64,000 bases of DNA from a virus (lineage: Duplodnaviria; Heunggongvirae; Uroviricota; Caudoviricetes): positions 62,067 to 126,066 of IMG/VR virus record IMGVR_UViG_3300006204_000004; one strand, given 5' to 3'. The position numbers and the translations under genes were made by a program. The notes beneath the pieces are model-generated. The model saw only the letters and a list, made by a program, of their open reading frames with translations. It did no database searches and was not told the DNA's origin. The first letter of the stretch is position 1; each line of letters starts with the position of its first letter. Shown here piece by piece: positions 3,602 through 43,615 of the stretch.

Positions 3602-3898
3602 TTTATTCCTCCAACTATTGTAATAGGATAATATTAACATATTAAATCATATTATTATAGTTAGAACATGAGTTTTGTCATATTATTACAAAACAAATGA
3701 AATATATATCTTTTTATTTTAAAGATGTATACAAAAAGTCGATACTATTTTCACTGACTGTATGATAATGTATAATATCGACATTTTTTGGAGAATAGTA
3801 TTATTAGAATAATACGTAACAGTTAATATATTCTTGTTAATCAACAAACTTGAAACATGTGTTTTGTATTGTCAAATTTAGTCTAATATGATAAAATT

Positions 3899-32299: not shown

Positions 32300-32328
32300 T
32301 TGAAATCTATTGTCAGATATGCTATATT
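32300..32328 (+). promoter_or_regulatory. Sigma-A-like promoter for antitoxin-like sRNA A
   Basis: TTGAAA-17 nt-TATATT. Confidence 0.5.
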
Positions 32329-32334
32329 ATAAAT

Positions 32335-32430
32335 ATAAAAGGAGCAACCGCCCACAAAGTGGTTGACTTCCCAGGTTAATTATATAAACCTACCTGATCC
32401 GGCAAGATACAAGGTAGGTTTATTTATTTT
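32335..32430 (+). ncRNA. Candidate antitoxin sRNA A (par/RNAII-like), ends at bidirectional terminator
   Basis: ~95 nt from promoter to hairpin AAACCTACCT-16 nt-AGGTAGGTTT plus ATTTATTTT (32386-32430). Convergent with peptide gene A. Confidence 0.45.
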
Positions 32431-32519
32431 CGCTTGTTATTCCTATCTATGTAGGCAAGCAGCGCGATTAGAAAGTTACCGCCTAAAAGCAAAAGGCTTA
32501 AGACTTGGTAAGTATCCAT
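32424..32519 (-). CDS. Fst-like type I toxin peptide A (31 aa: MDTYQVLSLLLLGGNFLIALLAYIDRNNKRK)
   Basis: SD GGGAGGTGGTG 8 nt before the ATG. The SD can pair with upstream CCTCCCT (sequestering hairpin). Stop lies immediately at the shared terminator. Minus-strand promoter TTGAAG-17-TATGAT at ~32600-32628. Confidence 0.5.
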   Translation of the reverse strand: MDTYQVLSLLLLGGNFLIALLAYIDRNNKRK

Positions 32520-37807: not shown

Positions 37808-38782
37808 TTATTGCTTATTTTTATTATAAAAATCTATCGCTTTTATAATATATTCTTCGACCTCTTCATCTTTAATGCATTTGGGGATAATTTTTCTTAC
37901 CTTTCTAAAATCTAATCTATGACTTTGTGTAACCGTTACTCGAAGTTGGAGTAGCTGAGATTCTATAAAAGTTTTCTTTTCTTCATATGTTTTTAATTTT
38001 TTATCCAAAATATTGTTTCTTATTCCTTTGACCATTTTTTCATTTATCTTAAAATCATTCAAATAATTAAGTATTATTCGTTGTGCATCCGAATCTAAAA
38101 AAGCCAGTTCATAGGCTAATCTAATAGAGATTTTTTTTCGATCCACTAAAACTTTTGCATCGTCAATGAGTTCGTTTAGTTTTAAATATATATTAATCAT
38201 TTTCCTTGTCAGACCATGTTCTTCACCTATCTTATCACCAGACAACTTTGAGTAACCGTTACTCGAAGCAATGCCTTGATGTCTTTCTGCATCCATTTTC
38301 ACTTTAATAGAATAAGCAAGCTGCATGGGTTTATAATCATTTCTTTGTCTATGTATCAAATTATCATCAATACATATAAGCTCTATCTGGTCGTTAGATA
38401 AATCTTTTTTCAAAATATATGGTACTTCCAGATTTAACTCTTTAGCTATATCTACACGATTATGTCCACTCAATATCATGAATTTATCATCCTTTTTTAC
38501 ACAAATAACAGGTGTAAAAATACCATTTAATTGAATAGATTCTTTTAATCGTTCTCTATCTTCCCCATGATGTAAATCTAATCTAAGCTTTTCGTCCTCA
38601 TAAGGTATAAACATATTTGCAGGGGCAGTAAGTATTTCATTCTCTAAGTTTTGTTCCTTTTCTAATTCTCTAGCAATTGTTTTTGTAAGATTATCGTCAG
38701 AAGATTCTTCGTTTAGCATTCCAACATAATCCATTTCCTGATCCATAAATCTATTTTTTCTAGCCATCCAGATCCTCCTCAT
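37808..38782 (-). CDS. parB: ParB-family partition protein
   Basis: ParB N-terminal box (TPVICVKKDDKFMILSGHNRVDIAKELNL) plus HTH region. Overlaps the parA stop. Confidence 0.75.
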   Translation of the reverse strand: MRRIWMARKNRFMDQEMDYVGMLNEESSDDNLTKTIARELEKEQNLENEILTAPANMFIPYEDEKLRLDLHHGEDRERLKESIQLNGIFTPVICVKKDDKFMILSGHNRVDIAKELNLEVPYILKKDLSNDQIELICIDDNLIHRQRNDYKPMQLAYSIKVKMDAERHQGIASSNGYSKLSGDKIGEEHGLTRKMINIYLKLNELIDDAKVLVDRKKISIRLAYELAFLDSDAQRIILNYLNDFKINEKMVKGIRNNILDKKLKTYEEKKTFIESQLLQLRVTVTQSHRLDFRKVRKIIPKCIKDEEVEEYIIKAIDFYNKNKQ

Positions 38783-39599
38783 ATATATCTATAATTCTCT
38801 TAGCAATTTTTTTATAATCTAATGAAGCATTATTAAATTTTTCATAAGCTTGTAATGGCATACATAGGGTTTTTATTTCAGCCATTTTAATCGTCTTTCT
38901 CACCGTAGATACAAATACATCCCCTGGGAGAGCTTCTGTAATTTTTTGCAAATTTTCAAATGCTTTTTTGTGTGAATTGGTTGATTCATATATAGCTAAA
39001 ATAATTCCTATAATATATGCATGAGATTCTTTATTTCGAGAATCGCGTAATTTTTTTAGATCTTGTTCTACAGCAATGATACCGCGAATTGAATTATCAT
39101 CAGATAGAGTAGGGCAGATGATATAATCTGCTGCAATATATGTCATATTAAGTAAAACGTTTCTAGCTGGTGGATTATCAATAATAATAAAATCATATTT
39201 TTTTAAAAGTATTTCACATACATCTTTTAGTAAATAAATATCATCACGCTCCATATATGTCTTATCAGCTTTAGACAGTATTGGAGAAGCAGGAATTATA
39301 TCATACCATTCTACTGAATATATTGCATCAGCAATTTTACATTCTTGTTGAAAAATATCATGTATTGTATACTCTGGTGATTTTATTCCTGAATTTCTAC
39401 TTGAATCACATTGTTGATCTAAATCAATTAGTAAAACTTTATATCCTTCATTGGTTAAACATGCAGCTATTTCAATGGCTGAACTGGTTTTTGCCGTTCC
39501 ACCTTTTTGGCTGCACAAAGCAAATACTTTACCCATTTCATTTCCTTTCTTTTTGTTGATAATGTAATTATAGCAAGGGTAATTAAAAAAATCAATCAT
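38760..39599 (-). CDS. parA: ParA/Soj-family partition ATPase
   Basis: Deviant Walker A KGGTAKTSSAIE. Probable true start MGKVFAL at ~39536. Confidence 0.8.
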   Translation of the reverse strand: MIDFFNYPCYNYIINKKKGNEMGKVFALCSQKGGTAKTSSAIEIAACLTNEGYKVLLIDLDQQCDSSRNSGIKSPEYTIHDIFQQECKIADAIYSVEWYDIIPASPILSKADKTYMERDDIYLLKDVCEILLKKYDFIIIDNPPARNVLLNMTYIAADYIICPTLSDDNSIRGIIAVEQDLKKLRDSRNKESHAYIIGIILAIYESTNSHKKAFENLQKITEALPGDVFVSTVRKTIKMAEIKTLCMPLQAYEKFNNASLDYKKIAKRIIDIYEEDLDG

Positions 39600-40261: not shown

Positions 40262-41485
40262 ATGGGGGAGAAATATATGTCTGATAAATATGAAGAAAAA
40301 AATGTGCCATACAAAGATAATAAGTATTCAAAATCAAATTATCTAATATCTGCAAAATATGCTTCAAGTCTACTAGAAAATAAAATAACTGCTATATCGT
40401 TGGCAAAAATACAAAAAAAAGAGTATACAGAAGATAAGAATGGCAGAATTGTATGTAGTATGACTGCTAATGAATTGAGAAAATTGTTAAATGCGAATGC
40501 AGGATCGTTTTATTCACAGTTAGAACCAGTGGCGATGAATATGACATCAAGGACTATTGGGTTTAGTGATCCTAGTAGAAATGGTGGAATGTTTGACTAT
40601 ATTTCTGTTATAGATAGAGCAAGGTATGAAAATGGGGTATTTAGTATATTCTACAATTCGGACGTTAAAGAATATTTATCCGATTTTAAAGCAAATTTTA
40701 CAGTTTTAGAATTGCCTACGATGTTAAAATTTAAAAACGTATATAGTTTTAGATTGTATGAATTATTATCTAGTAAGTCATATTATAGAAAAGGTATTCC
40801 TAAAGAGCTAAAAACACAGGTGTTTAGGATCGAATTTAATTTGTCAGAATTGAAGCTAAACATGGGAGTAGTAAATGCTGAATTGGATGCTGTACGAAAA
40901 GAATTAAATAATAAACAGGCACCAAATTATGATAAGGCAATAGAAAAATCCCCTGAAAAAAAATTTAATACATGGTATGAATTTAAAAGGGGAGTGTTGG
41001 ATACAGCCATAAAGGAAATAAACAATAAAACAGATATGAAAGTAAGTTTCAATCCTTTGAAGGGTGGTCGGGGAGCTAAGGTATATGGCGTAGAATTTAT
41101 TGTTGATTTGACGGGCAAAAATGTAGAAGCTATTGAAAATGTTTTAGAAACAGTAAAAGAAATGACTGATGATGAAAAAATTGATTTTGTCATAGATGCA
41201 AAGATGATTCTTAAAGAATTTTCTACTAAAGATGTAAGAGTAATTTGTGAAAAGTCGGGATATGATATTGAAAAAATAAAAGAAGCGTATCACATATATT
41301 CTAAACAAAAAAATATATCTAATCCTACAGGATGGATGATTTCTTGTATAGAGAATGAGTATCAAAATGATTGGGATACTGGAAATGAAAAGAATAGTAG
41401 TTTTAATAATTTTAGTCAAAGAAAGTATAACTATGAAGAATTGGAACGGGAGTTACTCAATATGGGAATGTTTCACGGAAAATGA
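40262..41485 (+). CDS. Plasmid replication initiator (Rep_3-like, iteron-binding)
   Basis: Immediately downstream of the iterons. N-terminal region LISAKYASSLLENKITAISLAKIQ is typical of Rep_3 initiators. Confidence 0.6.
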   Translation: MGEKYMSDKYEEKNVPYKDNKYSKSNYLISAKYASSLLENKITAISLAKIQKKEYTEDKNGRIVCSMTANELRKLLNANAGSFYSQLEPVAMNMTSRTIGFSDPSRNGGMFDYISVIDRARYENGVFSIFYNSDVKEYLSDFKANFTVLELPTMLKFKNVYSFRLYELLSSKSYYRKGIPKELKTQVFRIEFNLSELKLNMGVVNAELDAVRKELNNKQAPNYDKAIEKSPEKKFNTWYEFKRGVLDTAIKEINNKTDMKVSFNPLKGGRGAKVYGVEFIVDLTGKNVEAIENVLETVKEMTDDEKIDFVIDAKMILKEFSTKDVRVICEKSGYDIEKIKEAYHIYSKQKNISNPTGWMISCIENEYQNDWDTGNEKNSSFNNFSQRKYNYEELERELLNMGMFHGK

Positions 41486-42283: not shown

Positions 42284-42850
42284 ATGGATGCTTTTAAATT
42301 AGATAATTATGAAAATGATAAATGTACAATCGAAGATATATATGCTTTACCAGATGGACAAAGGGCAGAGCTGATTGATAGCGAATTATATATGATGGCT
42401 ACTCCTAGTAGAATTCACCAAAGAATTGTTATGGAATTGTCATTTAGAATAAGAGATTATATAGGAAATAAGAATTGGGATTGTGAAGTGTATCCAGCAC
42501 CATTTGCAGTATTTTTAAATGCTAATAATGATATTTATGTAGAACCTGATATTTCTGTGATTTGTGATAAGAACAAGCTAACTGATGAAGGGTGCAATGG
42601 TGCACCGGATTGGATTATAGAGATTGTTTCTCCGTCAAGTCGTCCAATGGATTATAATAAAAAGCTATTCAAATATAGGACGGCAGGAGTGAGGGAGTAT
42701 TGGATTGTTGATTATGAACGTAATCTTATAACTGTTTATAACTTCGAGAATGATGAAATGAGAGATTATACATTTATAGATGAGGTAAAAGCTGGAATAT
42801 ACGATGATTTTGTAATTGACTTTTCAGTGATTAATATTGACGAACAATAG
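42284..42850 (+). CDS. Uma2/DUF820-family PD-(D/E)xK endonuclease
   Basis: Motifs EPDISV..D, DWIIEIVSPSS, REYWIVD. Confidence 0.8.
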   Translation: MDAFKLDNYENDKCTIEDIYALPDGQRAELIDSELYMMATPSRIHQRIVMELSFRIRDYIGNKNWDCEVYPAPFAVFLNANNDIYVEPDISVICDKNKLTDEGCNGAPDWIIEIVSPSSRPMDYNKKLFKYRTAGVREYWIVDYERNLITVYNFENDEMRDYTFIDEVKAGIYDDFVIDFSVINIDEQ

Positions 42851-42995
42851 AATACAAAATAGTTACACAATCCTCTCTATAAAGTTTTTAGATATTGAAA
42901 TATATAATTGCACATTGGAAATATGAAAAACGCATACAGAACGATTATTTCAAAAAATGGGGGACAAAAAACATCCCCATTTCCTAAATTAACAC

Positions 42996-43024
42996 TTGCA
43001 AATGAGCAAGGTATCATTTATAAT
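42996..43024 (+). promoter_or_regulatory. Sigma-A promoter for sRNA C
   Basis: TTGCAA-17 nt-TATAAT. Confidence 0.55.
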
Positions 43025-43030
43025 CAGATT

Positions 43031-43142
43031 AGAAACAGCCAAAGGGTATTTGCACGTCCGATGGTTGTCACCGGAAACTAATTGTGTTTCAAATTAATTT
43101 AGGCTATCCCCTATTGCGAGTAGGTGATAGCCCTTTTATTTG
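43031..43142 (+). ncRNA. Candidate antitoxin sRNA C (RNAII-like)
   Basis: ~110 nt ending at hairpin GGCTATC-17 nt-GATAGCC plus CTTTTATTTG (43102-43142). Convergent with peptide gene C. Confidence 0.45.
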
Positions 43143-43213
43143 CGGTGGTTGTCGAGATAAGATAAAGCTGCGAATACAACTAACAGCAACGTCAAAATTT
43201 CTAACGTATCCAT
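43136..43213 (-). CDS. Fst-like type I toxin peptide C (25 aa: MDTLEILTLLLVVFAALSYLDNHRK)
   Basis: SD AAAGGAGGT 4-5 nt before the ATG. 5' UTR hairpin CTTTCC-gggaac-GGAAAG overlaps the SD. GGTGGTTGT at the mRNA 5' end is complementary to ACAACCACC at its 3' end. Paralogous to peptide A. Confidence 0.5.
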   Translation of the reverse strand: MDTLEILTLLLVVFAALSYLDNHRK

Positions 43214-43615
43214 ATGTACCTCCTTTCCGTTCCCGGAAAGTACAACCACCAGACTATCCCTACGCTGTTCTAATCTGACTATGAAATATTATAGCATATT
43301 ATGTCTGTTATTGCTATACGAAAAAATAAATTATATATTGCATTTGATTGTAAGAAATGATAATATAAAAATGTAATTCAATAATTAATTGTTTTATCCA
43401 ATAAAACTCCTGAGATGCACCCCACAATTTGTATCTTAGGAGTTTTATTATTATAGAAGAATTCTATAATAATAGTTAGTCAAGTTTTATAATCTTTTAA
43501 CCTTATTTTAATGTTTTCTCAATATTTTGTTGTATTTTCATATATAGTTGTGTTATAGTTGTAATTAACTTATATACTTACAAGAGTAAATTCAACAAAT
43601 AAGGAGGAACCAGTT

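Follow-up and report, generated by a model that had tools for sequence, protein, structure and literature searches.

The sequence analyzed here is a 64,000-nucleotide stretch of a Caudoviricetes virus record, which we call the window. Upstream of the locus under study are a Rep_3 gene (40262-41485), ParA and ParB-like genes (38760-39599 and 37808-38782), and a gene for a Uma2 nuclease (42284-42850), and an M4 peptidase gene with Listeria-Bacteroides repeats lies downstream, which agrees with the original prediction that the site is next to a plasmid replication region. The locus itself is a conserved cassette at 42952-43316, called module C here, which is the kind of element expected on such a replicon; a paralogous module, module A, is located elsewhere in the window. 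The features of both modules are listed below, in which all the transcript ends of the cassette, for both RNAs, are taken from consensus motifs.

42952-43316, minus strand: whole conserved cassette, from the toxin -35 box to the T-run of terminator T2.
43288-43316, minus strand: putative toxin promoter, with TAGCAA (43311-43316), a 17-nt spacer, and the extended -10 box TGcTATAAT (43288-43296), from reading of the sequence.
43229-43280, minus strand: toxin 5' UTR arm of a predicted long-range helix, containing element E1 (GGUGGUUGU, 43242-43250), from RNAalifold.
43218-43240, minus strand: Shine-Dalgarno (SD) sequence AAGGAGGU (43218-43225) and hairpin CUUUCCG-GGAA-CGGAAAG (43223-43240), from folds and covariation.
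43136-43213, minus strand: toxin ORF, 25 aa and a stop codon, MDTLEILTLLLVVFAALSYLDNHRK; its last codons carry element E2 (ACAACCACC, 43144-43152).
43102-43132, no strand assigned: hairpin T1, predicted terminator of the plus-strand RNA; its 12-nt arms show 92% complementarity, and TTTTATTT comes next on the plus strand.
43022-43078, minus strand: toxin 3' UTR arm of the helix, containing element E3 (ACAACCAUC; plus strand GATGGTTGT, 43060-43068), from the inverted repeat and RNAalifold.
42996-43024, plus strand: putative promoter of the antitoxin RNA, TTGCAA-17-TATAAT, from a promoter scan and conservation.
43031-43141, plus strand: predicted antitoxin RNA, approximately 110 nt, non-coding, with ends placed from the promoter and T1.
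42952-42978, minus strand: T2, predicted terminator for the toxin mRNA, GGGGAUG-UUUUUU-GUCCCC and then AUUUUUU, from terminator prediction.
43084-43278, plus strand: 64-aa ORF with a GTG start, the longest ORF in the spacer, judged not to be a gene.
32424-32519, minus strand: peptide of module A, 31 aa, Hol_Tox, from Pfam.
32616-32588, minus strand: putative toxin promoter of module A.
32300-32328, plus strand: putative convergent promoter of module A.

The edges of the cassette, 42952 and 43316, are the positions at which homology with relatives in unrelated gene contexts begins and ends, and an nhmmer profile built from 24 relatives matched positions 42954-43285 of the window. The locus alignment used below contains loci of the C type (defined in the next paragraph) with 99% down to approximately 50% identity to the window. 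We consider that 42952-43316 is probably a self-contained type I toxin-antitoxin cassette of approximately 365 bp, of the TxpA/BsrE/BsrG kind. As judged from its sequence and that of its relatives, the cassette is real and conserved and is like a type I toxin-antitoxin module, with a fairly ordinary small toxin gene under a predicted antisense RNA. When the whole window was compared with Rfam at the gathering threshold, there was no match, and at E ≤ 10, the cassette locus gave just chance-level matches to rli28 and snoR4a. Three 95%-identical relatives (L004, L005, and L007) carry a 46-nt insertion (locus positions 3618-3663) between the Uma2 stop codon and T2, at window position 42899/42900, and this insertion marks the outer boundary of the cassette.

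A DNA pattern composed of an SD sequence followed by codons for MDTxx[IVM]LxLLL matched two places in the window, the ORF at 43136-43213 and the ORF at 32424-32519, with 0 matches expected. The same pattern occurred at at least 120 metagenome loci, and many of these contigs were labeled human gut. Among the matches listed, 37 loci, mostly from the human gut, encode C-type peptides of 25–31 aa (MDT[LM]E[IV]LTLLLV[IV]FAAL[ST]Y[IL]D...), and the A-type peptides, of 28–33 aa, follow the pattern MDTY[EQ][VI]L[ST]LLFLGG.FL[IV]ALLAY[IL]D.... In eight distinct C-type coding sequences, the numbers of variable sites at codon positions 1, 2, and 3 were 9, 0, and 13, respectively, and 10 codon columns were purely synonymous and 5 were conservative. 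Furthermore, a 3-nt insertion in the 95%-identical relatives is in frame and gives the toxin the C-terminus ...LDNHHKK. These patterns indicate that the C-type peptide is under purifying selection, and that the minus-strand ORF of 25 aa, preceded by a strong SD as originally proposed, is a real gene and a member of a conserved short subfamily.

The family to which this peptide belongs is best seen from its paralogue. The peptide of module A matched the Pfam family Hol_Tox (PF16935), the family of TxpA, BsrE, and BsrH, with an E value of 2e-10 and a score of 40.8 bits against a cut-off of 23.3 bits. None of the 10 C-type peptides reached any Pfam or NCBIfam threshold, that of Hol_Tox included. 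When a C-type profile was aligned with an A-type profile (hhalign), the match was end-to-end, with a 4-residue gap in the helix, a probability of 97.8%, and an E value of 7e-13; the paralogy of peptides A and C, which had first been proposed from their residues, is thus confirmed. Based on this profile homology, and on the fact that no model is reached by the C-type peptides, we assign the C type as a short (25–31 aa) branch of the TxpA-like/Hol_Tox toxins that is missed by the current models. The long transcript of module A folds with a z score of -6.5 and contains a 5'-3' closing helix, with UTR sequences unrelated to those of module C, so module A shares the design of module C. A screen of the window for small ORFs with an SD, a hydrophobic stretch, and a basic C-terminus, together with an nhmmer profile of the C-type cassette, detected no third homologous copy. 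The locus listed as module B in the original prediction is not homologous to modules A and C. In other contigs, A-type toxin genes are duplicated in tandem, 461 nt apart on the same strand in L102 (1050-1094 and 1511-1555) and likewise in L173.

The surroundings of the C-type cassettes vary. In six relatives (L140, L082, L104, L097, L167, and L108), their neighbors are a gene for a MobA-type relaxase, Abi_2, and a MerR/ABC pair and, in the same set, also genes that look like housekeeping genes, for an RlmI-like methyltransferase, a DEAD helicase, and PrmA, suggesting that the cassette moves between mobile and chromosomal contexts. The many copies in chromosomal-looking contexts are also in line with a different reading of the locus, i.e., that the peptide is a conserved small membrane protein whose role is physiological rather than lethal, that the plus-strand RNA is an ordinary cis-antisense regulator, and that the whole is not an addiction or stability module. 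The hydrophobic stretch of the peptide at 43136-43213 is approximately 15–17 residues, unusually short for a membrane span, no Pfam toxin model was matched by the C type, and even within the known family BsrE is a weak toxin and YhzE-2 showed no toxicity (PMC6562991, PMC2887945). However, the peptide is homologous to Hol_Tox peptides, its mRNA is predicted to be repressed heavily and at several levels, as is usual for toxin mRNAs (through a buried SD, a 5'-3' lock, and a full antisense RNA, as described below), and the cassette occurs on plasmid, relaxase-bearing, and Abi-bearing DNA; we therefore consider a non-lethal role unlikely.

We next describe the putative toxin mRNA. The TGnTATAAT of the toxin promoter is nearly invariant across the alignment of relatives, and we infer a transcript start near 43280-43282. 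The SD (AAGGAGGT, 43218-43225) is 4 nt from the ATG, and its 5' half is buried in all folds by the hairpin at 43223-43240, the 5' UTR hairpin over the SD that had been noticed from the letters alone. This hairpin reads CUUUCUG/CAGAAAG in relatives, a compensatory change of C-G to U-A, and a U.G intermediate also occurs. Beyond the ORF, hairpin T1 is followed by a U-tract on the plus strand only, as expected of the end of the approximately 110-nt plus-strand RNA for which it had been proposed, and the toxin-strand tail is not U-rich in relatives; one pair of T1 is compensatory (C-G/U-G/U-A). The original prediction overlooked both terminator T2 (42952-42978), which is located just beyond the plus-strand promoter, and an inverted repeat of approximately 55 nt (43022-43078/43229-43280), and these two features changed the transcript model. 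T2 reads AGGGGUG/GCACCUCU in the group with approximately 63% identity, with two compensatory pairs, and it stays with the cassette beside unrelated neighbors, co-directional as well as convergent. Because T1 has no U-tract on the toxin strand, T2 is conserved and covaries, and the 5' UTR is complementary to the 3' region, the toxin mRNA most likely reads through T1 and ends at T2, with a length of approximately 330 nt.

The promoter of the plus-strand RNA was present as predicted, at 42996-43024. Here, the promoter scan alone was not above chance (6 sites against 5.5 expected in DNA of 31% G+C), so the weight rests on conservation: both hexamers are kept in relatives down to approximately 63% identity (groups 1–3), and the -10 box is also kept in group 4. 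The plus-strand RNA folds with -31.1 kcal/mol and a z score of -2.8, including terminator T1. If the toxin transcript extends to T2, the plus-strand RNA lies wholly inside it, and it is most likely fully antisense to the toxin 3' UTR and the stop codon. A pairing in trans between the plus-strand RNA element GAUGGUUGU and E2 was rejected by inspection, as it is not kept in group 3.

These transcripts bear directly on the claim that the locus is a par/Fst-like module, in which the two RNAs overlap only at a bidirectional terminator (43102-43132) and translation is blocked by an antitoxin paired to the 5' region of the toxin mRNA. In pAD1, RNA II pairs with the 5' region of RNA I. Like par (fst/RNA II) of pAD1, module C is plasmid-borne, with convergent promoters around a common hairpin and a translation-limiting 5' structure, and a short form of its toxin RNA, with the hairpin that sequesters the SD, shows 5'-3' complementarity (z -4.4). 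However, neither peptide of the window gave an Fst match in Pfam and NCBIfam scans at E ≤ 10, and the paralogue belongs to Hol_Tox, i.e., the peptide family differs. The 5' part of the plus-strand RNA is similar to the toxin 5' UTR in sense orientation, and its complementarity to the toxin 5' UTR and to the ORF/start region did not exceed that of shuffled sequences (RNAduplex z -0.27 and -0.38), so no pairing of the DRa/DRb type was found and a par-type mechanism is not supported. Moreover, relatives have no toxin-strand U-tract after the hairpin, so the toxin transcript probably does not end there as in the par model, which also leaves the conserved T2 and the 3' arm unexplained. A par/Fst-like module is thus highly unlikely. 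From the earlier claim of a type I module, the hydrophobic peptide gene, the sequestered SD, and the convergent small-RNA promoter stand, whereas the par/Fst-like label and the transcript ending at the central hairpin are not supported, and for this plasmid-borne type I module both the assignment to a family and the model of the transcripts are corrected accordingly. On the features compared here, the cassette is of the Bacillus TxpA/BsrE type with a 3' overlap, rather than of the enterococcal par/Fst type, and by analogy its arrangement is the 3'-overlap type seen in txpA/RatA, bsrE/SR5, and bsrG/SR4 (PMC6562991; PMC2887945).

The 3' arm of the imperfect inverted repeat lies between T1 and T2, so that the long toxin mRNA would contain both arms. 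The 331-nt RNA from 43282 to 42952 has a minimum free energy (MFE) of -121.4 kcal/mol and a z score of -9.06, with the closing helix present, and the RNAalifold consensus of 24 distinct loci contains 36 pairs that join 43229-43280 and 43022-43078. Across the alignment, 98% of the helix cells were paired, compared with 39–47% when the partners were slid; the alignment used for this test was also the source of the structure. The covariation of the helix comes from 3–4 independent lineages, with double changes in four pairs only; in helix 1, one position takes all four bases across relatives. Transitions between the arms left G.U on the toxin strand in 4–8 cases and A.C in 0–1 cases in every lineage (6:0 in the window), and this bias argues for pairing within one toxin-strand RNA and against a repeat that acts at the DNA level. 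Significant complementarity between the 5' UTR and the 3' region, with differing sequences, was detected in all the C-type lineages tested, including group 4 with approximately 50% identity, and also in module A of the window and in about ten A-type lineages; some A-type loci showed no significant 5'-3' complementarity.

A DNA-level role, with the repeat as duplicated promoter-leaders or as paired operators for a regulator of both promoters, would explain why both arms begin at -10 boxes and why the first 15 nt, the initial transcribed sequences of the two promoters, are nearly identical (TATAAT-n-CAGATTAGAA; 43019-43034 and 43268-43285). However, a bias toward G.U on the toxin strand would not arise from DNA constraint, and the complementarity is kept by unrelated arm sequences in group 4 and module A, and we give this explanation only a very slim chance.

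Within the putative 5'-3' helix, element E1 has a second potential partner. The original prediction pointed to a long-range complementarity between GGTGGTTGT and ACAACCACC (43144-43152 and 43242-43250), and this is indeed an exact 9-nt inverted repeat that forms, as E1:E2, a 10-bp duplex in all lineages with two compensatory changes. The pairing energy of E1 is -23 kcal/mol with E3 and -16 kcal/mol with E2. In the group with approximately 63% identity, E1 is UUGCGGUUGU, and both E3 (GCAACCGUU) and E2 (AUAACCGCAA) have changed to match, despite a differing peptide C-terminus, i.e., E1 covaries with both E2 and E3. When the RNA was folded without its 3' UTR, the ORF was closed through E1:E2 and the SD was still buried; the SD was sequestered in the window MFE structures of both the long and the truncated RNA, among which no translation-competent state was found. 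These folds raise the possibility that E1 is a toggle, such that E1 would be displaced from E3 and would switch to E2 once the antitoxin had bound the 3' UTR, a proposal that we make tentatively and regard as rather doubtful. The comparative data nevertheless give a testable RNA design, with a 5'-3' lock and one element that has two alternative partners. If the toggle is true, antisense binding at the 3' end would be coupled to the locking of translation at the 5' end, which would be a case from Gram-positive bacteria in which an antisense RNA bound at the 3' end controls the structure of the 5' end. It would also mean that a TxpA-family cassette of Gram-positive bacteria arrived independently at a logic like that of ucb, fbi, and dcb in hok, and that this logic is common to a previously unmodeled short-peptide subfamily that is frequent in gut Firmicutes.

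The proposed mechanism can be summarized as follows. The toxin mRNA would start near 43281, run through T1, and end at T2, and its 5' end would be locked by an interrupted helix of approximately 36 bp with its own 3' UTR; as this helix starts at the very 5' end, it might protect the mRNA from a 5' exonuclease. The plus-strand RNA would pair with the toxin 3' UTR in a duplex of approximately 110 bp, which would be cleaved by RNase III, and the toxin mRNA would be destabilized, as for RatA, SR5, and SR4. This pairing would free the 5' arm, and E1 would move to E2 at the end of the ORF, beside the SD hairpin, so that translation would stay blocked. If the cassette were lost, here with a Rep_3/ParAB replicon, the antitoxin would be the first to disappear, and membrane damage by the peptide would follow.

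Several parts of this scheme have precedents. In txpA/RatA, bsrE/SR5, bsrG/SR4, and yonT/SR6 of B. subtilis, each toxin mRNA is bound by its antitoxin at the 3' end, over 100–140 bp, with RNase III as the effector, and the ribosome-binding sites of the toxins are sequestered in 4–5 GC pairs (PMC6562991). EF3263, a TxpA-family locus of E. faecalis, has an RNA of approximately 110 nt antisense to its 3' UTR (PMC2887945). Module C shares with the txpA/RatA family (BsrE/SR5, BsrH/as-bsrH, and EF3263) a single-helix peptide with a polar N-terminus and a Lys/Arg-rich C-terminus, a convergent antitoxin RNA of approximately 110 nt antisense to the toxin 3' UTR (predicted from sequence in module C), an SD in a short GC-rich helix, and a location on mobile DNA of Firmicutes (PMC6562991, PMC2887945). 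It differs from the family in that its peptide, of the 25–31 aa type, is without 4–6 helix residues (the GGxF segment) and scores under the threshold of Pfam, and in that its toxin mRNA appears to span the whole antitoxin gene and its promoter, rather than just overlapping at the 3' end.

A parallel for the long helix is bsrG/SR4 of B. subtilis SPbeta, in which a long main helix is also formed from the 5' and 3' parts of the toxin mRNA. The BsrG peptide, of 38 aa, is longer than that of module C, and to our knowledge, no alternative pairing comparable to E1:E2 and E1:E3 has been described for bsrG. SR4 binds the 3' part of this main helix, P1, which can alter the SD structure, tightening its sequestration, and trigger RNase III (PMC6562991), whereas the corresponding switch in module C is a prediction.

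A fold-back of the full-length toxin mRNA between its 5' and 3' ends is also known from hok/Sok of plasmid R1. In hok, the upstream element ucb pairs alternatively with fbi or dcb, which resembles the pairing of E1 with E3 or E2. Sok is antisense to the 5' leader and mok, whereas the predicted antitoxin of module C is antisense to the 3' UTR; module C encodes an unrelated peptide, with no Hok match in the Pfam scan, has no leader ORF in the ORF list, and shows no sign of 3' processing.

We also analyzed the distribution of the cassette in public data. The exact Uma2 protein was found in 213 blocks of public assemblies, and one of the seven records listed was labeled mouse gut metagenome. The contigs that bear Uma2 carry the same spacer, with 95–100% identity, and on most of them the pipelines called no spacer gene. 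The short TxpA/Hol_Tox branch, missed by the Pfam and NCBIfam models and by gene callers, is common in mouse and human gut metagenomes, where it occurs on mobile as well as chromosomal DNA. There is a negligible chance that the 64-aa plus-strand ORF (43084-43278) is the real gene of the spacer, with the small RNAs and the peptide incidental, because, although it is the longest ORF there, it has no Pfam or NCBIfam match, no convincing SD before its GTG start, and no gene call by annotation pipelines on seven public contigs, and it is whole in just two sequences, the window and L001 (99% identical), being broken in the 95%-identical L002, L004, and L005, in which the minus-strand peptide frame is preserved; it is best regarded as an artefact, as originally suggested. 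Among the plasmids of PLSDB, there was no match to the locus (megablast and blastn) or to either peptide (tblastn). In a phage collection, an unannotated 'Bacteriophage sp.' sequence from human feces (MT836936.1, 3947-4200) matched 64% of the cassette with 67% identity.

A few copies are incomplete or altered. In L120 (2983-3393), unrelated DNA follows right after the stop codon, so this copy has no T1, no antitoxin promoter, and no T2, and in L064 (1003-1413), the toxin promoter is replaced, as are approximately 15 nt at the start of the 5' UTR; these two copies may be orphan or decaying, or may be assembly joins. Frameshifted C-termini were observed in L085, L073, L095, and L172 (C-type, ...NRSTRCLFL; A-type, ...ALRNQLRWFYLH), which suggests that some cassettes are undergoing inactivation.
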